Part shown: piece after piece, positions 1-10,881 of the stretch
Position numbering within the stretch: the stretch's first letter is position 1
How the letters are laid out: the number at the start of each line of letters is the position of its first letter
Assembly: GCA_046351615.1 (NCBI GenBank)
Contig: JAXLYF010000011.1
Location: 1-10,881, forward strand
Reading direction: 5' to 3'
Length of the DNA stretch: 10,881 nt
Source of the DNA: Polyangia bacterium
GTDB taxonomy: Bacteria; Myxococcota_A; Polyangia; Palsa-1104; JAEUJZ01
The notes under the pieces: generated by a model
The model's database searches: none
What the model saw: only the letters and a program-made list of their open reading frames with translations
Told to the model about the DNA's origin: nothing
Program-made: the position numbers and the translations under genes

Positions 1-413
1 AGCGGCGATAGGTCGGAGACGTGTCCCCACGCCAGCTTCAGCGACACGAGGTTTGCTGATATCGGCCACAGCAGGCGTAGGTCGCTTGGCGGGTTTCTTT
101 TGGCAAAGAAGACGCACGTAAGCTCTCGTCGATTGGCCAGATCGGTCAGCGATTGAATGTCAAACGCCGGCAGCCTACTGTCCAATAGCAGCCGTGCGAG
201 CGAGATCTTGAACTTCCGCGCGAGCTTCCTGCCGCGCTCAATGTTCGCGGGAACACCAGTACAGACCATGCGAAACAGATAATCGGGTAGCAGCGGTGCG
301 GGATCGACGCCCTGCGCAGCGCACAGCGCCTTTCCTTGTGCGACCTCTGCACGATCGTCACTACAGATCAATGCAAGCAGCGGATCCAGTGATGCTGACA
401 GCGGAGGTGACAT
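1..413 (-). CDS. hypothetical protein; only the 5' part is in the window (ATG at 413-411, ORF runs off the left edge)
   Basis: I translated the reverse complement by hand: MSPPLSASLDPLLALICSDDRAEVAQGKALCAAQGVDPAPLLPDYLFRMVCTGVPANIERGRKLARKFKISLARLL... with no stop through position 1. It is absent from the supplied track, presumably because it is open-ended. Composition is protein-like and GC matches the high-GC flank. No family recognised. Confidence 0.35.
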   Translation of the reverse strand, partial: MSPPLSASLDPLLALICSDDRAEVAQGKALCAAQGVDPAPLLPDYLFRMVCTGVPANIERGRKLARKFKISLARLLLDSRLPAFDIQSLTDLANRRELTCVFFAKRNPPSDLRLLWPISANLVSLKLAWGHVSDLSP

Positions 414-578
414 GGAGTCTTGATGCTACCACAAACCGACGAAGCGCTGCGCCCACGATGGGGATCGGCGCATTCGGTAAAAAGGCATATCAAGACAATA
501 TACCAATAAAAAGATCACTTGTCAGGGCCTTGACGACTTTAGGATGGATGGTGAAATTAAGCAAAACGGAGGCTGAAT

Positions 579-1082
579 ATGGCAAAAAAATTTCCGGTTC
601 ACCCATTCATTGAAAAGCTCACCAAAGGTAACAATTCAGCGGTGACGCTCAGGGCGCTTCGTGGCTTCATCGGTCATGGACCTACAGAAGACATCATCAG
701 AATCTATCTGGACCTATCGCTGGATCGCTATATCGATGTTCCAGAACAATATGTTCATCATGTAAAAAATCAAAACAAAGCAGAAACAGAGCATGAGCCT
801 TCTGAGATCTGGCTTGATGCAAAGACGCCACTAACGCTGGACGATCTATATCGCATCGTGCTGCAAGGTGGCTGGATTGGACCCGTTGAAAATCCAATCA
901 AACCGAAACCAACTGTAGTGAATCCGATCATTGAAAAAGTGAATCTGGACATTCACGCAGATCGAAGTTCTTCTTATTCAACGATTGGAGCCGATAAGAG
1001 AGGGGGAACCATCGAACTAGATCTTGATAAAGATAAGAAGCCAAAGCCTCCGAATCCAAAACCGAAGCGTGGTCGCTCGTAG
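579..1082 (+). CDS. hypothetical protein (167 aa) with a Lys/Pro-rich C-terminus; encoded in the lower-GC island
   Basis: ATG is preceded by GGAGG at a 7-nt spacing (..aaacGGAGGctgaatATG). The ORF is markedly more AT-rich than its flanks. The C-terminal tail is KKPKPPNPKPKRGRS. No recognisable domain. Confidence 0.55.
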   Translation: MAKKFPVHPFIEKLTKGNNSAVTLRALRGFIGHGPTEDIIRIYLDLSLDRYIDVPEQYVHHVKNQNKAETEHEPSEIWLDAKTPLTLDDLYRIVLQGGWIGPVENPIKPKPTVVNPIIEKVNLDIHADRSSSYSTIGADKRGGTIELDLDKDKKPKPPNPKPKRGRS

Positions 1083-1153
1083 GGAAGCTTGCGCTAGCAA
1101 CTGGGTATAACGGACGCGCCAGTGGCCGTCTCTTGACATGCTGAGGGCTCAAC

Positions 1154-2545
1154 ATGCGTACACTTTCGCTGCTAGGAACGAGTCTGCTGATGGCTGTGAC
1201 GACAATGGGCTGTCGTCCCATGTTGCCAAGCTTGCCGCAGTCTCGCAATGAAATGGCCAAGGCGTTGGATCATCTTCAGTGGTATACAGATGCCTATGGC
1301 TTTGGTGCAATGTCTACGCCCTTGTTTGTAAACCCAGATGAGATGTTTCACTTTCGACTCTCTGGCGTTTCGGCCAACACATTCTTTGATGCAGCCAGAA
1401 AAGAAATCAATGTCCGTCACGCTGGCGCGGGTATGAGCTTGTTAAGCGTTGGAACCAGCCTGACCGGACAGTTTGATATCGCTGCAATTCAGCAAGGCTT
1501 GGCAGCGCAGTCGAACTACCAGGCAGAAATGGCGACCGTTCAGGAAAAAAGACGCGTACTAGATGCCGCTGCGCGCCGGGAATACGAAGCAGATCGACTG
1601 GCCGCCCAAGCCGTCACGGATCCAATAGAGCGAGAGAGAAAGCTGGCGGAGGCGGATCGGAAGCTGGCTGCCAGCCTGTCTGGGCCTGCCGCAGATGCGA
1701 GTCCGAAGCCAGCTGTGACCTCAGGCGCTACCGCTGATGCCGCCAAGTCAACCAGCACATCTTCACAGCAGCTGGCCTTTCCGCAGAGCTTGATGGCTGC
1801 GAGCTCAGCAAGTCCATCCAATGAGATGCGCAGTGCCCTGCTGATGGCTGCCGGGGATACGGCCACCTATGCGATCCTGTCTCTCCTCGGCGAGCCCGAG
1901 AAAATGAGCCAATTTACGGGACAGAAGGTCTTGTTTGGCGTCTCGACCGTATCCGTCAATCCGGGCTGGCTGACAACGCAGAACTTCGCAGCCGATGTGT
2001 CAACCAAAGTCTCGATGACGTATGTCCCAGCTCGTCAGGTTGTACGTGATGCACTGATTGAGCACTTAAACACAATTGCCAAACAACCCACAGACAAAAG
2101 CCCAGACAAAATCCAAGACAGATCACAGACTACACAGAAGGCATCAGCGGCGAATTCATCAAATGCGTTCACTCAGCTGAGTCAGTGCATTACGGAATCG
2201 CTTCAGGTGGCCACCCCGGATGTTTCATCGTGGTGTGATGATTTTGAATCTGAACCAAAGAAGACCCTTGAGAAGATATCAGAGCCTTATCATCAAGAGC
2301 TGCTGAATCGATACATCCTGCGCTCCTGTAAGCCCAGTGATGTCTTGGTTTCGGCGGTGTCGCCGATGTCTGATGCGCAGCTGCTGGACTCACAGAGCTC
2401 GCTGAGTCGCCAGGTTGAGCTGGCCGCGCGAATCCAGCTTGCGCTGAGCTATGCAGGTGCCAAGGCCGCTGCCTTTCACCTGATCACATCTTCCCTTTCC
2501 GACGGAGAATTTGGCCGAGGAAGGGTTCTAGGGATTTGGCGATAG
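1154..2545 (+). CDS. putative secreted/lipoprotein, Ala/Ser/Thr-rich with a coiled-coil-like middle; the 3' end reads into the IS element, so the native C-terminus is probably altered
   Basis: GAGGG lies 8 nt upstream of the ATG. The N-terminus MRTLSLLGTSLLMAVTTMGC looks like a signal peptide with a lipobox-like Cys20. The last ~29 codons (from ~2458) lie inside the proposed IS left inverted repeat and overlap the transposase 3' end by 60 nt on the opposite strand. Confidence 0.6.
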   Translation: MRTLSLLGTSLLMAVTTMGCRPMLPSLPQSRNEMAKALDHLQWYTDAYGFGAMSTPLFVNPDEMFHFRLSGVSANTFFDAARKEINVRHAGAGMSLLSVGTSLTGQFDIAAIQQGLAAQSNYQAEMATVQEKRRVLDAAARREYEADRLAAQAVTDPIERERKLAEADRKLAASLSGPAADASPKPAVTSGATADAAKSTSTSSQQLAFPQSLMAASSASPSNEMRSALLMAAGDTATYAILSLLGEPEKMSQFTGQKVLFGVSTVSVNPGWLTTQNFAADVSTKVSMTYVPARQVVRDALIEHLNTIAKQPTDKSPDKIQDRSQTTQKASAANSSNAFTQLSQCITESLQVATPDVSSWCDDFESEPKKTLEKISEPYHQELLNRYILRSCKPSDVLVSAVSPMSDAQLLDSQSSLSRQVELAARIQLALSYAGAKAAAFHLITSSLSDGEFGRGRVLGIWR

Positions 2546-3833
2546 CGAAGAGTTCTTGTTTGGTGTGAATCTGGATAAGCTGCATGGCGCCGAGGAAAAG
2601 CAGTGCTCCACGCAGCAGCATCGTGGGTCCGACGGGATCTTTGCGGCGACCCGACCAGCCGCCGAGCTTGGCGAGGGTTTGTCGGAGCTGGACAGACTTG
2701 TCATCGCTGGCGGCGCTGAGTTGATAGACGCAGGAGGCGGCCATCTGCACGAGGAGCAGACGACGGGCGATGCGCTCGGCGTTTTCCTGATGCCAGCATT
2801 CGAGGCGGAAGCCGATTTTTTCGAAGTAGAACAGGCGCTCGATTTTCCAGCGGCACAGGTAGCGTTCCACGACGGAAAACGCAGGCTCCGCAAGGTTTGT
2901 GAGGAGCACCCAGCGCAGCGTCTTTTCACCCTCGCGGTGCAGCTCAGACACGACGACACGCACGGTCAGCGGCGCGCCGGGCTGCGGCTTCTGACGGCGC
3001 TTCTGCACCCCTCGCAGCGACGGACGAACCAGTGTCACCTGCGTCTGTGCGACCCTCAGCTCGTAGGTGGCTTGGCCCCGCGCGAGGCGACGGGTCACTT
3101 CGCCGACGGGCTGGAGCTTCAGCGACAGAAGGTGCGTGCCGAGCGAGCGCTGCTGGCCATGCACAGCGACGAGACGCGACAGGTTTCGGCAGCGCACGAC
3201 ATAGCGACGGTCCGCCAGATGCCGAAGCAGCTTCACGTCGTCGAACTCGCGATCGAACAAGTGAATCAGGTGGCGCTGCGGCAGGAGTTTCTCGACGGCA
3301 TCGACCGCTCGCTCGGCTTGCTCAAGATGGTCCACAAACGGCAGCGGCTCGTCGCACAGCGAAGACAGAACCCCGGACTGAGCGCGCAGCTCAGTAACCG
3401 CTGCACCGATGGGAGAACCCTCGACAATGACGAGGGTCTGAAACAGCTCGTAGCCAAAGGTGTGGTCGTTACCGACGGGAATCAAGTCCTCTTTGCGCTG
3501 ATGTCCCGTGTAATTGAGGACCGACACATCATGTGCGACACATGCCGTTTGCGACGGAGAAACCTGCTCTCGCAGCCGTGCCTGCATCGGCGCATGCAGA
3601 GCTGTCCTCGTCACACCCTCGTGGTCGAAAAAGCGATAGGCCCCTCGCGTAAAGGCCTCCTGAGTGTCGTCGGCAGGAGCCAGACACCCGAGGCTGCTCG
3701 GCGAATGCCCGCGCACCATCGACTGCACGAGCTTGGCTGCGCGACGACGGAGTCGCTGATCCGGCAGGGGCACATCTTGAAGCAAGGTCTCAAGGTTCAG
3801 CATGCTCCGTCGCAAAAGCAGCTTCCTTGCCAG
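2458..3833 (-). mobile_element. IS4-family (Tn5/IS50-like) insertion sequence; boundaries approximate
   Basis: Contains a single transposase ORF. Candidate imperfect terminal inverted repeats are 2458-2477 (tgccaaggccgctgcctttc) and the reverse complement of 3813-3832 (tggcaaggaagctgcttttg), matching at 15 of 20 positions. No clean target-site duplication is visible. The ~1.38 kb length with a 1.33 kb ORF is compact, as in IS50. Confidence 0.55.
2484..3815 (-). CDS. DDE transposase, IS4 family (Tn5 Tnp-like)
   Basis: C-terminal signature YLCRWKIERLFYFEKIGFRLE corresponds to the Y-(2)-R-(3)-E-(6)-K motif of Tn5 Tnp (YTHRWRIEEFHKAWKTGAGAE). N-terminal similarity to Tn5 Tnp is visible by eye (RGAYRFF.. 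vs EGAYRFI..; DQRLRRRAAKLV vs DPRRTARLVNV). The track start is TTG at 3815, preceded by AAGGAAG at a 6-nt spacing. An alternative ATG at 3803 gives MLNLETLL. Confidence 0.85.
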   Translation of the reverse strand: MRRSMLNLETLLQDVPLPDQRLRRRAAKLVQSMVRGHSPSSLGCLAPADDTQEAFTRGAYRFFDHEGVTRTALHAPMQARLREQVSPSQTACVAHDVSVLNYTGHQRKEDLIPVGNDHTFGYELFQTLVIVEGSPIGAAVTELRAQSGVLSSLCDEPLPFVDHLEQAERAVDAVEKLLPQRHLIHLFDREFDDVKLLRHLADRRYVVRCRNLSRLVAVHGQQRSLGTHLLSLKLQPVGEVTRRLARGQATYELRVAQTQVTLVRPSLRGVQKRRQKPQPGAPLTVRVVVSELHREGEKTLRWVLLTNLAEPAFSVVERYLCRWKIERLFYFEKIGFRLECWHQENAERIARRLLLVQMAASCVYQLSAASDDKSVQLRQTLAKLGGWSGRRKDPVGPTMLLRGALLFLGAMQLIQIHTKQELFAIAKSLEPFLGQILRRKGKM

Positions 3834-3941
3834 CCCGAAAAAAGCGCTCTGCCCGTCGCTGAGGGCAACTCATCGGGCGCTTACATCAGGCCCTCAGTCG
3901 TCCGAATCCCGGATCCCAGACGGCCAGCCGGACATGTGACC

Positions 3942-5099
3942 ATGGGAAAGGCCGCTGCAGATACCTTTGGACAGTGGGCCAAGCGACAACAAGAGGACAT
4001 TCAGAGCCGATCGGCCAATGTGGTGGTGAACTCGTACAGCATGTCCGGTGGTATCTTTGGGTTTCAGGTTGGACCGAAGCTGCTCGCTTCGCCATCACAG
4101 AGCAGCGGCTCTGCCTCTGTAGAAAAGCTAACCCGTCAGTCGTTCCCAACACTGCTGATCATGGGCTATGACGAGCAGGAAGTGGGGGCTCGGGTTCTGA
4201 TTAAAAAAGAAGAATCGACCAAAAAGACCTACTGTCACGTAGTAGAGCCAGACCTCAGACTTGATACCATGACAAGCTGGAAGCCATTGAATAAAAAAGC
4301 GGACGTGTTGTCAGAAAAAGAGTTCTATGCAGTGCGTCATCAGGCAAGAGATGCGTGGCTTGGACTTATGGCATCCGATGACAGGCTAAAGAAACATCGA
4401 GGATCTGGGCTGATTGCGAACGCCGATCCGATGAAGTTGTATACAGATCGACAGCACTACTATAAGCATATGGAACATCTGCTGTCACGACTAGAAGGTG
4501 TTGGTTATCATACAACACTTCCGATTGAAGCACTCAAGGCACAGCTTGCGAAAAAGGATGCTTGTGCCAAGTGTGAAGCTCCAAAGATCACGGCAGTATC
4601 GCCTGATGTGATCTGGCTTGGGCGAGACCAAGCAGGCAAGCCAATGTCCAAGACGGTACAGATTGTGCTGGTCGGCACTGGGCTGGACAAAGTGAATGAA
4701 GCGCAGATCGAGCAAGGCAGCGCCTTCGGGTTCAATTCGGAAGGGAAGGAGTCCAAGAAACCAGTGATTGAGAAAGTTGGCGGCTCGCGTTTGCTGACGT
4801 TGCGCGTTGACGCTGCGGACAGCCCACTGGTGTTGACGCTGCCAGTCAAGGATCCTGACGTTGTGATTCGACTGCCGGCCATCAAGGTGGCGATGGAGCC
4901 AGCACCGAGCACTCCGCTGAAGATTGAACACACGAAACCATCGGGGACGGAGTCCTTCAGCTTCCCGAAGGGAACGTCAGATGATGTCATCAAGGCAGTG
5001 GTGCAAAAAGACGCTCCGGTCAGAGCTGCCCCAGCGAGCGGACAGCCGGATCGCAAGCCCATCCAGCAGCCGCTCAAGCCAGGGCAGCCAACCCAGTAG
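3942..5099 (+). CDS. hypothetical protein (385 aa) with a Pro-rich C-terminus; this is the likely real gene inside the 2556-5099 fusion ORF
   Basis: First ATG after the IS right end (an alternative GTG is at 3936). Sequence is lower-GC and Lys-rich (e.g. attaaaaaagaagaatcgaccaaaaag). Everything in this frame upstream of 3942 is antisense to the transposase. No strong Shine-Dalgarno sequence and no recognised domain. Confidence 0.5.
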   Translation: MGKAAADTFGQWAKRQQEDIQSRSANVVVNSYSMSGGIFGFQVGPKLLASPSQSSGSASVEKLTRQSFPTLLIMGYDEQEVGARVLIKKEESTKKTYCHVVEPDLRLDTMTSWKPLNKKADVLSEKEFYAVRHQARDAWLGLMASDDRLKKHRGSGLIANADPMKLYTDRQHYYKHMEHLLSRLEGVGYHTTLPIEALKAQLAKKDACAKCEAPKITAVSPDVIWLGRDQAGKPMSKTVQIVLVGTGLDKVNEAQIEQGSAFGFNSEGKESKKPVIEKVGGSRLLTLRVDAADSPLVLTLPVKDPDVVIRLPAIKVAMEPAPSTPLKIEHTKPSGTESFSFPKGTSDDVIKAVVQKDAPVRAAPASGQPDRKPIQQPLKPGQPTQ

Positions 5100-5163
5100 T
5101 CCAATGTGGTTGCTGACGTAGTCCCAGCAGCCTTACCGTCGCACTGGGCACAGCTTCGCAACT

Positions 5164-5172
5164 TTTGCCATA
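5164..5172 (+). promoter_or_regulatory. candidate extended -10 element (TGcCATAAT) upstream of the 5192/5216 gene
   Basis: tttTGcCATAATggg lies 20-45 nt upstream of the candidate starts. No convincing -35. The judgement is by sigma70 analogy only, and the host promoter consensus is unknown. Confidence 0.2.
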
Positions 5173-5191
5173 ATGGGCTGGCGCGATCGGG

Positions 5192-6160
5192 ATGGTGCGA
5201 CGCGCGGCTGGGGGAATGAGCAAGCGGCTCCGCTCACTACTTGTGGAAGAAGGCATGGTGTCGGCGCTGCGGATGGCGCAGGCGCAGGCGCTACAGGTTC
5301 GACGCCGAGGCTGCCTGGATACGTGCTTGCTGGAGCTGCGTGCGATCGACGAGCCATCGCTCTTGCCGTACCTGAGTCGCGCGGCGGAGCTGCCGGTGCT
5401 GGCGGACGGACTGCTCGGGACGCAGCGTCCGCTGCCTGATGTGCTGACGGTGTTTCCGCTGTCGCTGGCCGAGCGCTTTTCAGCGGTGCCGGCGCAGCTG
5501 CTCAGCGATGGTGTGCTGCAAGTGCTGGTGACGGTCGATGCCGAGGCGTCGGAGCTGGAGACGCTGTCGCACATCCTCGCTTACCGGATTGAGCCGTGGG
5601 TGGTCTGCGAGTTTCGCTATCACGAAGCGCTGTCGCTGTGCTTTGGTCAGCCGCTGTCGCCGCGCTTTGTCGAGCTGCTGGCGCAGAGTCAGCGGGTTCG
5701 CCAGCGACGAGCGATACCGGTTCCACTGTGGAAAGGTCACTTGCCGCGCTTCGGGAGCCTGGATGCTGCGCGAACGCTGCTGGCCCTGCGTCCGCCTGCG
5801 CCGCTTCCTCCGCCCATCGTGGAACCGACGGTGGAACCAGTCGTGGAACCAGTCGTGGAACCAGTCGTGGAACCAGTCGTGGAACCGAGCGTGGAACCGA
5901 GCGTGGAGCCGAGCGTGGAACCGGCTGTGGAACCGAGCGTGGAACCGAGCGTGGAACCGAGCGTGGAACCGAGCGTGGAACCGGCTGTGGAACCGAGCGT
6001 GGAACCGAGCGTGGAACCCGTTGTGGGCGATCCCGATGTCGTGACGGTCAAAGAGCATCGTCGTCGGCAGTATTACGGTCCGGGTCGCAGCTTGGTTCGC
6101 TGGATCACGGTGAAGAGCTACACCCACCGTCGCGCAGCGCCCCATGTAAAGTCGAGCTAG
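5192..6160 (+). CDS. protein with an N-terminal region resembling the T2SS-E/MshE N-terminal (T2SSE_N) domain, followed by a (VEPx)17 repeat linker and a short basic C-terminus
   Basis: [62 protein letters not shown] and ..[47 protein letters not shown] match the two halves of the T2SSE_N pattern (LGELLVexG.i..eqL..AL..Q ... vA.adP.d....del.f.tg..vepv.a...ei..al...yg). The start could instead be ATG 5216 (MSKRL...). The tandem-repeat region is 5819-6022. Confidence 0.75.
5819..6022 (+). repeat. 17 tandem copies of a 12-bp unit (gtggaaccgagc and variants) encoding VEP[TVSA]
   Basis: Read directly from the sequence. Units stay in codon phase. Only the third/fourth codon of each unit varies (acg/gtc/agc/gct/gtt). 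Preceded by PPAPLPPP. Confidence 0.95.
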
Positions 6161-6226
6161 CGACTGCGGACGCGGCGCGGTGAATCGATCCCAGCGCAGT
6201 GCCAAAAGCGGTTACGATCGAAGGGC

Positions 6227-6868
6227 TTGGACCCGCGCATCTACTCATCCAGTCAGGTCTGTCGTGTTCATGTCGAGCTGACGACTCGCTGTAACGCTGC
6301 GTGTCCGATGTGTCCGCGAACGCGAGCGGGCGGCGCACCCAACCCGAACCTGCCGCTTGTGGAGCTTCGGCTTACCGACGTGCAGACGATGTTTCCACCG
6401 GAGGTGCTTGGGCGACTCAAGCAGTTTCTGTTCTGTGGCAACTACGGCGATGCGCTGACGGCGCGCGATACGCTTCCGATCTGTGAGTACCTGCGGGCGC
6501 ACAACCCGAAGCTGCGGATCAAGCTGGTGACGAACGGCTCGGGACGCGATGCGGCGTTTTGGTCGCAGCTTGCCAAGGTGGTGACGACGGTGACGTTTAG
6601 CATCGACGGACTGGGAGACACCAACCAGCTCTATCGTCGTCGCACCAGCTGGAATCGCGTGATGGACTCGGTGCGCGCGTATCTGGCTGCGGGCGGACGG
6701 GCCGAGTGGGACTTCCTGGTCTTTCGTCACAACCAGCATCAAGTTGCGGAAGCCGAAGCGCTCGCGCGTCAGCTTGGCTTTGCCAATCATGTGGCGCTGC
6801 CGCTCGTCGGGAAGCAGCGCCTGTGCCGGCTGCGTGGGAAGTGTTCGGGAAGTCGGCGCTGCAGGTGA
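6227..6868 (+). CDS. radical SAM enzyme, N-terminal fragment of a gene split by a 3-kb insertion (probable pseudogene)
   Basis: VHVELTTRCNAACPMCPR carries the canonical CX3CX2C [4Fe-4S]/SAM cluster motif. LFCGNYGDALT corresponds to the GGEP-like SAM-binding motif, LRIKLVTNGS to the xTNG motif, and VTFSIDG to the ribose motif. Only 213 aa, against 330-450 for typical family members. Start is TTG in the track, with no in-frame ATG. After the 15-bp repeat at 6772-6786 the frame runs 27 more codons of probable non-native sequence to a stop. Confidence 0.75.
   Translation: MDPRIYSSSQVCRVHVELTTRCNAACPMCPRTRAGGAPNPNLPLVELRLTDVQTMFPPEVLGRLKQFLFCGNYGDALTARDTLPICEYLRAHNPKLRIKLVTNGSGRDAAFWSQLAKVVTTVTFSIDGLGDTNQLYRRRTSWNRVMDSVRAYLAAGGRAEWDFLVFRHNQHQVAEAEALARQLGFANHVALPLVGKQRLCRLRGKCSGSRRCR
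6772..6786 (+). repeat. 15-bp perfect direct repeat, left copy (gcttggctttgccaa), inside the radical SAM N-fragment
   Basis: An identical 15-mer is at 9820-9834, in the same codon phase (g|ctt|ggc|ttt|gcc|aa) in both ORFs. Flanking bases differ (a/t here, c/g there). Confidence 0.8.
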
Positions 6869-7189
6869 TGCGCGTGGGCGTGCGTAGGCTGTAGGGAACG
6901 ACCAGCACAGCGCGCAGGTAGACCCAGCTGCGGTTTTTCATCGCGGATGTCGCGGAGTTGGGCGGCGGACATGGCGTAGACCGTCGGATCGCTGGCAAGG
7001 TTGTGCTATTGTGGATCGCAGTGTCTCGGTTGTCCGTCGCTGGTGGGGGAAATGCACTGGCCTTTTAGTGCGTGCGTCCAGCCCTGGATGCCACGTCATT
7101 TCCGGTGCTTGGCGTGGCGTCCGAGTGAATCGGTTTGGACAGCTCGCGTCGACGCACCCATCGAAGCCTGAGCGCAAGGAGTCGCTACC

Positions 7190-9088
7190 ATGCCGCTGTA
7201 TGAGTCAGACCGCAAACCACACACGCCCGATCCGTGGAGCGCTCCCAAGCCACAAGCGGCGGCTCCATCGATTGCTGCGATGGGCGATGTAAAGCCGCAC
7301 GTCTCCGCAGTGGGTGGCACCAAGTCGCAAGCTGCTCCGGCGACGGCCAGCGAAGGTGGTGGCGCGTGGCAAGGAGCAGCCAAAGGCGCGGCGATAGGTG
7401 CGGCGGTGGGATCTCTGTTGGGACCGCTCGGTGCGGGCATTGGCGGCATCCTGGGCGGCGTGATTGGGAATCGAACCGGGGAAAAGGAAACCGCTCATCC
7501 CGAACGGTTTGATCCGACCGAAAAGATCAAGATCACCGACGCGGAGCGCAAGCAAGCAGAGACGATGCGTGGTGACCTCAGCAAGTCGCTGGAAAAGCTG
7601 GAGCTGCCGCAGAAACAGCGCGATCAGATCCTGGCACAGTGCAAAGGGCTGTCGGGAGATGCGCTCGTCGAGCATATGCGGATCATTGGGCACGCGCTGC
7701 AGACGGAAAACGCCGACCGAGCCCTGAGTGCGTATGCAGACATCACGCAGATGGCAGCAGCGGACAGCAAGCACGGTGGACGCATCGGCACAGACATCTT
7801 GGGAGAGCTGGTAACTGGCGTTGCGGACCGACGGACGGACAACGATCGCGGCATGGAAGGAATCTTGGGCGCCAAGCAAGCGCGTGAAGCGGCAGAGGCG
7901 CTCCTTAAGATGAGCGATGGCGACTTCAAGGCCACAACAGAGCTGCTTCAGCAGGCCGGAAAAGCTCCCGATGGGAAGGTGTCAGCGACGGCGGATGCTG
8001 GGGCAGAACGGTCGCTGCTTCTGCAAGCGGTGGCTGCGCGCAAAGACGACTTCAGTGGTGCGGATGCGCAGAAGGATATCGCGACGCTGACCTCGTTTGC
8101 GAAAGACATCCGAGGCATGGAGCGCAAGGAGCTGATTCGCACGACCACGGCGATTGATGTCGATGGGGACAATACCTCGACGCTGAAGCCAACGGGAATG
8201 GATGCCGCAGCGCCTGTTGGTTTGCTTCAACGGATGTGGAATACGGTGTTTCCTCCCAATCCTGCGGACCAACGGGCCGATAACGACGGTCTGTTTCAGC
8301 GCTACACCCAATCGTGCGCACCGACGACAGCGCAGATGACCAAAGCGGCAGCAGACCCGATCTATGCGCGCGCGCTTCACAAGAGCGGCTTGAACGATCC
8401 GGGCCAGGACAACCTGGCGGCCAAGGAACAGAAAGACATCTTGGAGCGGCTGGGTGGCGCGGATGGAACGCCGGATCAGGCCGTCTCACGACTCGGACAG
8501 AAAGCGCGCGGCGACTTTAGTACGGACAGCAAGAACCTGCTGCGGAGCGGGGCACTGTCTGATGATCAGTTCAAGCTGCTGCGTGACTATGCAGACGGAA
8601 AAGATCTCAGCAAAGGGAATCAAGCAGCGCTTACCAAGGCGCTTGATACGATGCGCGCGGCCAACAAAGGACACCCGAGCGAGTCAGAGATTCAGGCGAT
8701 GCGCGACAACTCGCGACAGACCGAAGGCGACGGAATGTACTTGGATGATGCGCTCAATGACCACGCCAAGAGCGCGACGCACGTCAAGTACACCGATCAC
8801 GATGCGCAGGATGTCAGCGGAGCGGTCAAACAGACAGCGCTGGATACCTGGGCAGAGAAGCTGCGCGATGGACAAGACGTTCCGCTGCGAGTGGGCTGGA
8901 CGGCGGGAGGTGGTCACTTTATGGCGTGTACCGATGTGCGCGGACGAGGTGCTGATCGCAAGTTCCTGATCTCTGATCCGTGGACGGGTACTACGTCGTG
9001 GGTGGCGGAAAAAGCGATCCAAGATGGCTCATGGACCAGCACGTTTGAGGGTGAAGCGGGCTCGCTCACGCACCTGTACTATGAGTAG
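7190..9088 (+). CDS. large uncharacterised protein (632 aa): Pro/Ala-rich N-terminus, glycine-zipper membrane segment, helical middle, and a C-terminal putative papain-fold Cys/His/Asp hydrolase-like domain
   Basis: AAGGAG lies 9 nt upstream of the ATG. Glycine zipper: GAAKGAAIGAAVGSLLGPLGAGIGGILGGVIG. C-terminal signature: candidate nucleophile in FQRYTQSCAPTTAQM, candidate His in GWTAGGGHFMACTD, and Asp 20 residues later in KFLISDPWTG. This His-x(13-20)-Asp spacing is typical of papain-like (clan CA) peptidases and transglutaminase-like enzymes. No signal peptide. Coding-like composition throughout. Confidence 0.8.
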   Translation: MPLYESDRKPHTPDPWSAPKPQAAAPSIAAMGDVKPHVSAVGGTKSQAAPATASEGGGAWQGAAKGAAIGAAVGSLLGPLGAGIGGILGGVIGNRTGEKETAHPERFDPTEKIKITDAERKQAETMRGDLSKSLEKLELPQKQRDQILAQCKGLSGDALVEHMRIIGHALQTENADRALSAYADITQMAAADSKHGGRIGTDILGELVTGVADRRTDNDRGMEGILGAKQAREAAEALLKMSDGDFKATTELLQQAGKAPDGKVSATADAGAERSLLLQAVAARKDDFSGADAQKDIATLTSFAKDIRGMERKELIRTTTAIDVDGDNTSTLKPTGMDAAAPVGLLQRMWNTVFPPNPADQRADNDGLFQRYTQSCAPTTAQMTKAAADPIYARALHKSGLNDPGQDNLAAKEQKDILERLGGADGTPDQAVSRLGQKARGDFSTDSKNLLRSGALSDDQFKLLRDYADGKDLSKGNQAALTKALDTMRAANKGHPSESEIQAMRDNSRQTEGDGMYLDDALNDHAKSATHVKYTDHDAQDVSGAVKQTALDTWAEKLRDGQDVPLRVGWTAGGGHFMACTDVRGRGADRKFLISDPWTGTTSWVAEKAIQDGSWTSTFEGEAGSLTHLYYE

Positions 9089-9091
9089 ACT

Positions 9092-9703
9092 GTGAAACGT
9101 ACCATGCAGTCGCGTCGCTGTGCTCTCAAACAAGGACTGGCTATGATTGCGATGTTCGGTTTCTCTACAATCGCGGATGATGCCGTCGGTGGTGCTGCCA
9201 AACCAAGCGTTGTTTGGACCGATGTTGCTGCGCGTGCGGAGTCAACTCCAGCGGCGGATCTGATGGCAGCCAAAGCCAAGATCGATGCGCTGGCTGAACC
9301 GGTACGGAAACGGGCCGAGACGCTGCTCACGCAGGTTGCTGGGGTCACGCTTGATGCGGTGGGAATCCAGCAAGCAGTGACGTTGCTCAACAGCGAGGTT
9401 CCGGGCTTCTTTCGGTACGCTCCGGGCGAGCGTCCTGGGCAAGACCACCCACACGGAACGGCTGTACGCGGCGCAGCACTTCTGCTTCTGCGGGGACTGT
9501 TGTTTTCTGCGGGCAAGCGCGCCAAGTCGCACAATCATCCGGCGTCTGCCACCGCTGGGATCTTGGGTGGACTGCGGGCCTGCCGGGTTTTCCGTCCGCT
9601 CGATCAGACCAAGCTGGAAGAAGATCTGATGCTGGTTGTTTCGTCGAAGGTCTACTTTGCGGCGGAACAGATCTTGGCCGACAAGAGCACAGCCAAGCAG
9701 TAG
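9092..9703 (+). CDS. small protein (203 aa) with a twin-arginine-like N-terminal signal; putative exported partner of the upstream gene
   Basis: It starts 3 nt after the upstream stop (GTG 9092, or ATG 9104 giving MQSRRCALKQGLAMIAMFGFSTIA..). SRRCALK fits the Tat consensus S/T-R-R-x-F-L-K and is followed by a hydrophobic h-region. No recognised domain. The tight spacing suggests an operon with 7190-9088. Confidence 0.65.
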   Translation: MKRTMQSRRCALKQGLAMIAMFGFSTIADDAVGGAAKPSVVWTDVAARAESTPAADLMAAKAKIDALAEPVRKRAETLLTQVAGVTLDAVGIQQAVTLLNSEVPGFFRYAPGERPGQDHPHGTAVRGAALLLLRGLLFSAGKRAKSHNHPASATAGILGGLRACRVFRPLDQTKLEEDLMLVVSSKVYFAAEQILADKSTAKQ

Positions 9704-9790
9704 TCGGTCCACTTTCCCGAGTCTGCGTGACGGATGATGGCGGCGGGCTCGCGTGCGTACTTCCCCGCGCATCGGACTCGGTAGCGGGGA

Positions 9791-10363
9791 ATGCGAGCGA
9801 AGGATCTCGACGAGCACACGCTTGGCTTTGCCAAGTTCAACGTGAAGCGCTCGCAGCGGTTCTTGGTCGATGGTCAGCCGGCGGACCGCTTTCCGGTGCT
9901 GCGCGCGGCGGGAGGCATCGACTACTACTTAGAGCTTCCGACGCTGCCCGACTATCAGAACAGCGGCTTTGTGAAGCTATCGAGCTTGCAGCGGCGCGGT
10001 CAGAGCTATGCCGACTATCTGTCCTCAACGCGAATTTCCTGCAAAGCGATGCGTGACGAGCAGGTCTACCTGAGCGCAACCGGCCATCTGTTTCCGTGCT
10101 GCTGGCTTGGACAGATTTATGACTCGTGGCCGTCACCGATGGCGGCAGAGATTCGCTCGCGCATTGCGGAGCTTCCGGACGGACTGGATGCGCTGGATCT
10201 TCGAAAGCGCTCGTTTGCCGAGATCATCGATGGTCCGTTCTTTCAAGATCTGGTTGTGCGCGGCTGGCATCCCGAAGCGCCGCAAGGTCGGCTGTCAGCC
10301 TGTGGTCGCATGTGCGGAGAGATCGACACGCACTCACGTCAGTGGGAATCAAGCAGCGTGTGA
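9791..10363 (+). CDS. radical SAM enzyme, C-terminal SPASM/twitch-like fragment of the gene split at 6786/9820 (probable pseudogene)
   Basis: SCKAMRDEQVYLSATGHLFPCC matches C-x13-G-x4-C of the SPASM/twitch auxiliary-cluster motif. A terminal CGRMCG gives CX3C. The sequence upstream of 9820 (MRAKDLDEHT) is probably not native coding. Joined to the 6227 fragment at the repeat, it gives a ~362-aa in-frame protein. Confidence 0.75.
   Translation: MRAKDLDEHTLGFAKFNVKRSQRFLVDGQPADRFPVLRAAGGIDYYLELPTLPDYQNSGFVKLSSLQRRGQSYADYLSSTRISCKAMRDEQVYLSATGHLFPCCWLGQIYDSWPSPMAAEIRSRIAELPDGLDALDLRKRSFAEIIDGPFFQDLVVRGWHPEAPQGRLSACGRMCGEIDTHSRQWESSSV
9820..9834 (+). repeat. 15-bp perfect direct repeat, right copy (gcttggctttgccaa)
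   Basis: Identical to 6772-6786 and in the same codon phase within the downstream radical SAM C-fragment. Confidence 0.8.
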
Positions 10364-10376
10364 TACGCTCAGCGAA

Positions 10377-10881
10377 ATGAGCAGATGGGCTCTCGTATTG
10401 GTGCTGGCGCTCGGCTGTAGCAAAGGCGGCATGCTGTCCGATGGGTCTGTTGACCATCCAGATGCGCACCTAGATCCACTGCGTGACCTGGCTACGCAAG
10501 CAGATGACTTGCAGCACGGGGCTGAAGATCTGGGCTCGGCTGATCTACTGACCGTGGACCAGCGTGGCACCGATGCTGCCATGTCTGCGGATCTGAAGCC
10601 TGCGCCGGATCTGAGCGTGCCAGCGGATCTGAAGCCGCCACCGGATTTGGCTGTGCCTGGAGACTTGGCGACGCCACCGGACTTGGCATATCCGGTCAGT
10701 CAGACCGTCGATATCTTCGTCGATAACACCTGCAAGATGGATGTCTTGCCGAAGAAGTTCGACGTTCCTGCGGGCAGCTCGCTCAAGCTCACCTACGTAA
10801 ACCGCAGCCGCGACTACAAGGTCGACATCTGGGCCTCGTATGGCGGTGGCTTTACCGACCTTCTGCCCGGCGCTTCGTGGG
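10377..10881 (+). CDS. putative lipoprotein with Pro-Asp-Leu repeat linker; N-terminal part only (continues past the right edge)
   Basis: I translated it by hand: MSRWALVLVLALGCSKGG.. gives a signal peptide plus lipobox-like Cys. It is followed by ADLKPAPDLSVP/ADLKPPPDLAVP/GDLATPPDLAYP, then VDIFVDNTCKMDVLPKKFDVPAGSSLKLTYVNRSRDYKVDIWASYGGGF.. with no stop to 10881. It is absent from the track because it is open-ended. Confidence 0.6.
   Translation, partial: MSRWALVLVLALGCSKGGMLSDGSVDHPDAHLDPLRDLATQADDLQHGAEDLGSADLLTVDQRGTDAAMSADLKPAPDLSVPADLKPPPDLAVPGDLATPPDLAYPVSQTVDIFVDNTCKMDVLPKKFDVPAGSSLKLTYVNRSRDYKVDIWASYGGGFTDLLPGASW
10587..10694 (+). repeat. three imperfect tandem 36-bp repeats encoding a [AG]DL[KA][PT][AP]PDL[SA][VY]P linker
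   Basis: Units: gcggatctgaagcctgcgccggatctgagcgtgcca / gcggatctgaagccgccaccggatttggctgtgcct / ggagacttggcgacgccaccggacttggcatatccg. Confidence 0.8.

Follow-up and report, generated by a model that had tools for sequence, protein, structure and literature searches.

A 10,881-nt stretch of a Polyangia bacterium contig (JAXLYF010000011.1; hereafter "the window") contains a two-gene cassette that interrupts a radical-SAM/SPASM gene and is absent from a near-identical strain. Its first gene, A, encodes a protein with invariant catalytic-type residues in a modelled papain-like domain, and its second, B, a small, faster-diverging protein with a predicted export signal. From the occupied and empty sites, the synteny of the two genes, and the fusion of A relatives to delivery proteins, we infer that the cassette is probably, if by no means certainly, a recently and horizontally acquired orphan effector–immunity unit whose toxin would act in or through the cell envelope. 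Coordinates are collected in Table 1; L and P numbers denote the loci and homologous proteins compared.

A first-pass annotation, made from the nucleotide letters and a list of open reading frames (ORFs) without database searches, had described the pair as a self-contained insertion starting at 6869, and comparison with an empty site bears out the insertion but corrects its extent. The ORFs at 6227–6868 and 9791–10363 are two halves of one radical-SAM/SPASM gene, the listed ORF of the 5′ half continuing out of frame to 6868. Joined in silico across one copy of a 15-nt sequence that flanks the cassette on both sides, they yield a 362-aa protein matched best in the database by P0026, which is uninterrupted and 99% identical. 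The contig encoding P0026 (L053; GCA_009612795.1) shares its gene order with the window and with occupied contigs L001–L008, has flanks ~97–99% identical to the window, and carries an intact radical-SAM gene with a single 15-mer, versus two in each occupied contig that extends across both junctions. By blastn, window 5143–6786 aligns to L053 8800–10479 and window 9820–10881 to L053 10465–11526, and the two matches overlap in L053 by exactly the 15-mer. This overlap, together with the one copy in the empty site and two in occupied contigs, places the insertion at 6787–9819, between duplicated copies at 6772–6786 and 9820–9834. The insertion is recent. A longer duplication hinted at by tblastn (residues 153–182) was not real at the DNA level. 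GC content at third codon positions is 0.67 for A and 0.62 for B, slightly under that of neighbouring host genes (0.69–0.73).

How the cassette came to be inserted is less easily read from its contents, which comprise only A and B as coding sequence and include no element-encoded transposase or recombinase. Of the features of an insertion sequence or transposon, it shows a target-site duplication and lacks an enzyme of its own and terminal inverted repeats, none being found between its left and right ends; hairpins at the ends fold no better than shuffled sequence. The leader had no match beyond same-species contigs, tblastx between the non-coding ends and the other loci yielded nothing beyond short, scattered matches of low score, and the 30-nt left end, searched for in metagenomes, turned up only the same radical-SAM context and no second insertion site. 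No sigma-70-like promoter, Rfam match, or tRNA was found in the cassette. The duplicated 15-mer itself holds a perfect palindrome with 5-nt arms (TTGGC-TTT-GCCAA; chance expectation ~2%, as a rough estimate) that may be a recognition site for the inserting agent. In another Polyangia genome, a metagenome-assembled one whose A protein is 66% identical to that of the window (L017), integrase- and transposase-like fragments lie directly downstream of the A–B pair (7378–9092, minus strand; PF00589, phrog_1157, phrog_1). Orphan or auxiliary effector–immunity islands, such as the Aux clusters of Vibrio cholerae, move between strains; the A–B cassette resembles them in that its presence varies between near-identical strains and in bringing its own leader and ribosome-binding site as a self-contained unit, and differs in having no integrase, transposase, or terminal inverted repeat, in its 15-nt target duplication, and in landing within a coding gene.

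The two genes are laid out as originally described, with ORFs of 632 and 203 amino acids, a 3-nt gap, a strong AAGGAG motif 8 nt upstream of the ATG of A, and homologues for both products. A protein identical to A is encoded on 56 contigs, and a word-index search added 24 further homologues at 32–69% identity; searching 1.84 billion proteins with a HMMER family profile retrieved 683 cluster representatives, of which 234 reach E ≤ 1e-30. Invariance was assessed, and an AlphaFold2 (AF2) model built, from an alignment of 25 sequences. The model has a mean predicted local distance difference test score (pLDDT) of 81.7, exceeding 90 over most of residues 110–632 and falling below 50 for residues 1–110.

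Three motifs—TQSCAPTT, GGGHFMAC, and ISDPW—had led the first-pass annotation to propose a papain-like C-terminus with a Cys/His/Asp arrangement. All three are present, and Gln370, Cys376, His576, Asp596-Pro597, and Trp604 are invariant in the 25 sequences; read by eye, the key residues are also kept in distant relatives from Archangium, Corallococcus, Acidobacteriota, Chloroflexota, Actinomycetes, and Bacteroidota. In the AF2 model, Cys376 opens a helix (376–388), His576 lies in a strand (575–584), and Asp596 directly follows a strand (591–595), so that the predicted order is that of clan CA: Cys at a helix N-terminus, His on a strand, and Asp by the adjacent strand. Gln370 stands six residues before Cys376, as Gln19 of the papain oxyanion hole does before Cys25. 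Between the Cys helix and the His strand lie ~190 mostly helical residues, and it is this inserted sub-domain that accounts for the separation of 200 residues between Cys376 and His576. The model is significantly similar in three dimensions to solved clan-CA members, the structural neighbours (with the figure listed for each) being staphopain C (11.6), streptopain (SpeB; 10.4), calpain (10.2), interpain (10.1), the C39 domain of PCAT1 (10.0), a Citrobacter rodentium CdiA-CT protease toxin (9.9), the C39 domain of ComA (9.5), AvrPphB (8.5), and a C39-like effector of a type VI secretion system (T6SS; 7.8); staphopain, streptopain, and C39-type proteins are thus the nearest folds. Foldseek against the PDB, a check suggested at the outset, likewise returned papain-fold proteins of similar kinds, none below E 0.02. 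As modelled, the C-terminal domain of A is papain-like (clan CA).

Sequence searches placed this domain in no established family. Peptidase_C39_2 (PF13529) matched weakly in two of the 25 members (best E 1.6e-4) and not at E ≤ 1 in the window protein, which falls short of that model's threshold and also departs from the compact C39 domain of ~130–150 residues in which His follows Cys by well under 100. Peptidase_C70 matched weakly in one distant relative. The more specific suggestion of a Tox-PL or YopT/C58-type enzyme did not survive, as no family member matched the Tox-PL, Tox-PL-2, or YopT/C58-type models at E ≤ 1; nor did any of the 25 match the NlpC_P60, CHAP, or Tae4 Pfam models at that level. 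PDB sequence and profile searches with A gave nothing relevant (chance centrin-like matches at E 0.06), and Pfam, NCBIfam, PHROGs, and PADLOC nothing beyond glycine-zipper and low-complexity matches. The papain-type fold, the lack of PDB sequence matches, and the few weak family matches together indicate that A belongs to a divergent, unannotated clan-CA family, and the earlier impression that neither protein had a recognisable family holds for the conserved A core and for B alike across Pfam, NCBIfam, PHROGs, PADLOC, and PDB sequence searches.

Papain folds with a Cys-His-Asp triad are known to support reactions other than peptide hydrolysis (PMC3482391), and A could be an injected toxin, still with B as its immunity protein, that carries out deamidation, transglutamination, or acyl transfer. 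The best Foldseek match, to the phytochelatin-synthase-like Alr0975 (E 0.02), and others including Josephin-type clippases and GtgE would fit such chemistry, against which stands the papain-like placement of Gln370 six residues before the Cys; we think it distinctly unlikely. We treat this possibility, and that of a peptidoglycan hydrolase discussed below, as variants of the effector–immunity reading rather than as alternatives to it.

Upstream of the catalytic domain, the helical domain (residues 111–340) has no specific fold match beyond generic helical repeats, and the N-terminal tip bears a motif common to the closest relatives of A (MPxF/YDxxxKPxxxxPW). In agreement with the first-pass annotation, the A product is predicted to lack a signal peptide: it has no N-terminal hydrophobic stretch, and its sole hydrophobic peak is the glycine-zipper segment (Kyte–Doolittle KD19 maximum 1.54 at residues 75–84). 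The proposal that this segment is a membrane-targeting glycine zipper fared less well. The GxxxG repeats are there, but Gly-zipper_Omp (PF13488) reaches 21.1 bits where the cut-off is 25, no glycine-zipper model (PF13488, PF05433, PF13441) reaches its gathering threshold as a feature conserved in the family, and the segment is predicted to be disordered. It is confined to the four closest family members, glycine-zipper Pfam matches occur in three of 25, and the PHROG and NCBIfam matches at this position are low-complexity only. The glycine zipper is an accessory feature of the window lineage and does not define the family.

Gene A ends in TAG (9086–9088), and B starts in frame with it, at GTG 9092, after an intervening ACT. 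A start at ATG 9104 instead would retain the twin-arginine motif, and we favour the longer B ORF over the gene callers' ATG at 9143 because the region upstream of the latter is conserved. Gene B had been annotated as encoding a small partner exported by twin-arginine translocation (Tat). The motif SRRCALK and the 15 uncharged residues after it conform to a TATFIND-like rule for a Tat signal, and RR-x-[AMV]-L-K is kept in the three closest B orthologues (RRGML in L016, RRSVL in L017), with RRxxLKQGxAMIA conserved in L016 and L017. Export is the predicted fate of B in nearly all orthologues, but the Tat type is specific to this sub-clade: Sec-type (general secretory) N-termini occur in L009 and L055, lipoboxes in L018 (LVAC), L021 (LLAC), L026 (LIAC), L054 (SAAC), and the second paralogue of L056 (LLGC), and a near-lipobox GSAC in L019 and L020.

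These differences bear on a further possibility, namely that B is an export helper which binds folded A in the cytoplasm and lets it "hitch-hike" across the inner membrane through Tat. The missing signal peptide of A, the good Tat-type motif of B, and the translational coupling of the genes are all compatible with this; however, B orthologues in the same clade carry lipoprotein or Sec signals that could not carry a folded passenger, and the tandem duplication and fast divergence of B fit immunity better, leaving hitch-hiking very improbable in our view.

Immediately after the hydrophobic region, the three closest B orthologues and P0148 share the motif D-[DE]-A-[VM]-G-G (window 9176–9193, B residues 29–34), which could mark the signal-peptidase region or, given the C39-like fold of A, a double-glycine processing site. 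C39-type enzymes cleave after Gly-Gly (PMC12136450), and one might accordingly suppose that A is an intracellular regulatory or housekeeping protease and B either a merely adjacent envelope protein or a substrate cut at DDAVGG, with no antagonism between cells; that no secretion genes lie nearby would suit this account. Yet the GG motif is missing from most B orthologues, a lipoprotein, once exported, would be out of reach of a cytoplasmic protease, the pair varies between strains and has inserted into and inactivated another gene, and relatives of A are fused to VgrG and to an injection-system core domain. We regard a purely intracellular role as improbable.

The pairing of B with A is itself conserved. 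A word-index search with B found three close homologues only, and a hidden Markov model built from the neighbouring ORFs located B directly downstream of A in L001–L011, L016–L022, L026, L054, L055, and L056, and at no other place in the loci. B follows A in every complete locus examined from this A clade except L023. At L023 (9477–10406), which falls within the B clade, A is followed by an unrelated 309-aa lipoprotein with an LLAGC lipobox; the partner there has been replaced again and, to judge from its N-terminus, is still exported. Identity to the window copy is 66–69% for A and 52% for B in the closest relatives (L016, L017), and ~40% for A and 19–24% for B in more distant clade members, so that, at the level of these alignments, B diverges faster than A. 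L056 (7015–8018) has two tandem B paralogues after one A gene, a lipobox being present in the second only, and resembles an immunity-gene array. The model of mature B is a helical bundle of medium confidence (pLDDT 66.8) with generic structural neighbours only. An antisense ORF over the A–B region (9242–9817) was dismissed as a high-GC by-product, since nothing resembled it apart from the opposite strand of B genes.

A two-gene unit that moves and includes a protease-like protein might also be an intracellular toxin–antitoxin or anti-phage abortive-infection module. Export signals on B in nearly all orthologues speak against this, as do the lack of a meaningful PADLOC match and the absence of relatives of the pair from IMG/VR and from PLSDB plasmids, and of the explanations considered here it is the one to which we give least credence.

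An antagonistic function is suggested by the company kept by A-like modules elsewhere in the family. P0206 (989 aa) begins with a VgrG (Phage_GPD and Phage_base_V; NCBIfam VgrG models) and continues through a Gly/Ala/Ser linker into a complete A-like helical and protease module. Its locus (L059, 2912–12429) is a T6SS auxiliary island with a second VgrG, an FHA-DUF4123 adaptor, and a putative alpha/beta-hydrolase effector with a lipoprotein-like neighbour; the fusion gene is followed by a small partner gene described below (T2), a small conserved gene also found in L038 and L039, and a gene for a gp5-C-like beta-helix protein. In P0275, an extracellular contractile injection system (eCIS) core domain (PF13699, which we take to be the former DUF4157) precedes the A-like module, and relatives from Chloroflexota and Actinomycetes start with an "LQRxAGNxAV" leader, presumably the one typical of polymorphic toxins of eCIS and Photorhabdus virulence cassette (PVC) type. 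Further relatives carry LysM (P0017, P0201), PG_binding_1 (P0237), or annexin repeats (L051). Such architectures belong to polymorphic toxins and injected effectors (PMC3482391). The 700–800-aa N-terminal extensions of P0151 and P0158 had no Pfam, NCBIfam, or PDB match. The effector/immunity reading floated in the first-pass annotation is strengthened by the VgrG and eCIS-core fusions and by a B that is faster-evolving and, once, tandemly duplicated. In keeping with it, the A–B pairs sit as orphan cassettes in mutually unrelated neighbourhoods in different genomes, one of them beside the integrase- and transposase-like fragments of L017.

Partners vary across the family along with these architectures. 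Outside the B clade, a different small partner without a signal peptide, T2, occurs in L012, L041, L042, L061, three Corallococcus loci, and L059, where it directly follows the VgrG fusion, and in L038, L039, and L059 it is accompanied by a second small conserved gene. The loci from cultured Corallococcus (L038 7746–10080, L039, and L046) have a shorter, 452-aa A-like gene with T2 among housekeeping genes, and in L038 and L039 the further small conserved gene sits between the two. The eCIS-core fusion has a third, unrelated partner, also lacking a signal peptide, and downstream of P0237 there is a lipoprotein start. In a rough neighbour-joining tree, all B-partnered A proteins form one clade, one T2-partnered protein is its sister, and the remaining proteins with T2 partners group separately, outside these two; from this placement, the exported B looks like a later replacement.

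In the effector–immunity reading we favour, A would be a toxin of the clan-CA cysteine hydrolase family, with Cys376 activated by His576 and Asp596 from neighbouring strands and Gln370 placed like the oxyanion-hole Gln of papain; the helical domain and the ~190-residue helical insert would probably serve substrate recognition or auto-inhibition. By analogy with the relatives fused to VgrG or the eCIS core, A would presumably be passed to a contractile injection machine and delivered into neighbouring bacteria. B, translationally coupled to A, would be exported to the periplasm—by Tat here, by Sec or as a lipoprotein in other genomes—and there bind and neutralise incoming or self-delivered A. 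If B is periplasmic, the toxin of the window clade would act on, or have to pass through, the cell envelope, and its target could be an envelope protein or a peptidoglycan peptide.

Several observations weigh against this reading. No secretion-system gene lies near any A–B pair in the loci examined, so that of the neighbourhood features proposed for checking at the outset, the conserved pair in varied contexts was found and the adjoining secretion genes were not. The VgrG and eCIS fusions lie in other sub-clades, with different, signal-less partners (T2 and the third type), and their delivery route and compartment may for that reason not transfer to the window clade. The strongly LysM-fused P0201 is paired with the cytosolic-type T2, which means that fusion to a peptidoglycan-binding domain does not cleanly indicate action in the periplasm. 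Lastly, B was modelled from a shallow alignment, and the resulting fold is a generic helical bundle.

By function, the closest characterised systems are the Tae/Tai and Cpe1/Cpi1 pairs, and on sequence and architecture A–B belongs to neither. Tae1–4 are T6SS peptidoglycan amidase effectors with periplasmic immunity proteins, Tai1–4. A–B resembles them in setting a cysteine hydrolase that lacks a signal peptide beside a partner predicted to be exported or a lipoprotein, and in that some A relatives carry peptidoglycan-binding domains. On this model the cassette would encode a peptidoglycan hydrolase (an amidase or endopeptidase acting on the stem peptide) with B as its periplasmic inhibitor, for which the export signals on B and the LysM and PG_binding_1 fusions can be cited. 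Unlike the Tae proteins, however, A has no NlpC/P60, CHAP, or Tae4 sequence match, its structural neighbours are proteases, it is far larger with several domains, and no T6SS genes adjoin the pair; the absence of these Pfam models from all 25 members and the cytosolic-type partner of P0201 make the peptidoglycan-hydrolase variant, to our minds, unlikely, if worth keeping in view.

Cpe1/Cpi1 are C39-like protease toxins and immunity proteins of T6SS and contact-dependent growth inhibition (CDI) systems, in which Cpe1 cleaves GyrB and ParE at a Gly-Gly site (PMC12136450); the corresponding bioinformatic class, "Tox-PLC39", was defined by Zhang et al. 2012 (PMC3482391). With these and their kin, including the C. 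rodentium CdiA-CT (PDB 8ssm), A–B shares a small, fast-evolving adjacent partner, relatives joined to VgrG or PVC/eCIS-type leaders, and horizontal spread. In contrast, there is no sequence similarity (the A-family profile finds no PDB protease at E ≤ 10), the catalytic domain of A is about twice the size, with ~200 residues from Cys to His, and a conserved helical domain of ~230 residues always comes before it. A also has no recognisable delivery domain, so that the layout of a T6SS or CDI C-terminal toxin with cytosolic immunity is not seen in the window; a delivery-domain fusion with a signal-less downstream partner occurs only in the distant relative P0206. Finally, B carries a predicted export signal, while Cpe1 targets, and hence the action of Cpi1, are cytoplasmic in the published model (PMC12136450). 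No paper on the T6SS C39-like effector of PDB 9jdd turned up in a literature search. The secreted zymogens staphopain, streptopain, and interpain, although near in fold, differ in having Sec signals and unrelated inhibitors or prodomains, and in being virulence factors rather than effector–immunity cassettes. The kind of system represented by A–B is therefore known, whereas its family, architecture, alternative partner families, and recombinase-less insertion are not described in the libraries and literature searched.

Table 1. Features of the cassette and its insertion site, by position in the window
Feature	Coordinates	Strand	Evidence
Disrupted radical-SAM/SPASM gene, 5′ part (insertion target)	6227..6786	+	PF04055, E 5.6e-10
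Left copy of 15-nt duplication, GCTTGGCTTTGCCAA	6772..6786	+	Exact direct repeat; in frame within radical-SAM gene
Inserted cassette, 3,033 nt	6787..9819	+	Absent from near-identical strain (L053); blastn and junction sequences read directly
Non-coding leader of cassette, 403 nt	6787..7189	+	Shine–Dalgarno AAGGAG at 7176–7181
Gene A, 632 aa, predicted cysteine-hydrolase effector	7190..9088	+	ORF, homologues, AF2 model
A residues 1–110, Pro/Ala/Gly-rich, predicted disordered	7190..7519	+	pLDDT <50; alignment; composition
Glycine-zipper-like segment, A residues 56–101	7355..7492	+	10 GxxxG motifs; PF13488 sub-threshold
All-helical domain, A residues ~111–340	7520..8209	+	Conserved across most of the family
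Predicted papain-fold domain, A residues ~355–632	8252..9085	+	Gln370 8297–8299; Cys376 8315–8317; His576 8915–8917; Asp596 8975–8977
Gene B, 203 aa, predicted exported all-alpha partner, predicted immunity protein	9092..9703	+	ORF; homologues; model
B residues 1–28, Tat-like signal	9092..9175	+	SRRCALK at residues 7–13; h-region QGLAMIAMFGFSTIA; possible T-I-A/D cleavage site; then DDAVGG
Non-coding right end of cassette, 116 nt	9704..9819	+	Sequence
Right copy of 15-nt duplication	9820..9834	+	Exact repeat of GCTTGGCTTTGCCAA; same codon phase as left copy
Disrupted radical-SAM/SPASM gene, 3′ part	9835..10363	+	Weak SPASM match; continuous with 5′ part in L053

The window also holds a second strain-specific segment (396–5145; 4.75 kb), which replaces 93 nt of L053 (8710–8802), is absent from L001, and, leaving aside its insertion sequence, has a GC content of ~0.53 against ~0.61 for the host. 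It includes an ORF at 579–1082 and a lipoprotein-like gene from 1154. The insertion sequence is an IS4-family element (2473–3947) with imperfect terminal inverted repeats and a transposase at 2484–3815 on the minus strand (Tnp_DNA_bind and DDE_Tnp_1); it is flanked by an 11-nt direct repeat, AAGGCCGCTGC, at 2462–2472 and 3948–3958, appears to interrupt the lipoprotein-like ORF, which resumes near 3959–5099, and has ends unrelated to those of the A–B cassette. Between this segment and the radical-SAM gene, the protein encoded at 5192–6160 combines an MshEN-like N-terminus with a PT-type array of (V/S)EP(V/S/A) repeats, and its length of 285–322 aa among near-identical strains points to repeat-number polymorphism.

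To our knowledge, the predatory and competitive weaponry of activated-sludge myxobacteria is poorly known, and the characterisation of papain-fold protease toxins as weapons between bacteria has only just begun, with Cpe1 published in 2025. The A family is sizeable, has no Pfam or NCBIfam model, and combines an unusual two-domain build with at least two unrelated partner families bearing signals for different compartments; given its size, build, and partner diversity, the family could lead to a target not seen before, in the envelope or the cytoplasm, and to a new way of conferring immunity. Having the site both filled and empty in near-identical strains gives a rare view of recent cassette movement in a natural population of activated-sludge myxobacteria, and cultured Corallococcus with homologues, among them Corallococcus sp. 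CA053C, C. llansteffanensis, and C. sicarius, provide an accessible experimental system. In its fullest form, which we put forward only tentatively and think rather doubtful as a whole, our interpretation would be that an undescribed clan-CA family (~680 cluster representatives) serves as payload of both T6SS and eCIS; that the window clade has been re-targeted to the envelope with a newly recruited immunity protein exported by Tat or as a lipoprotein, sister clades keeping cytosolic partners; and that the cassette moves without its own recombinase, making a 15-nt duplication at a palindromic site. If true, that last element would point to an unrecognised, trans-acting mechanism for the insertion of effector–immunity genes.

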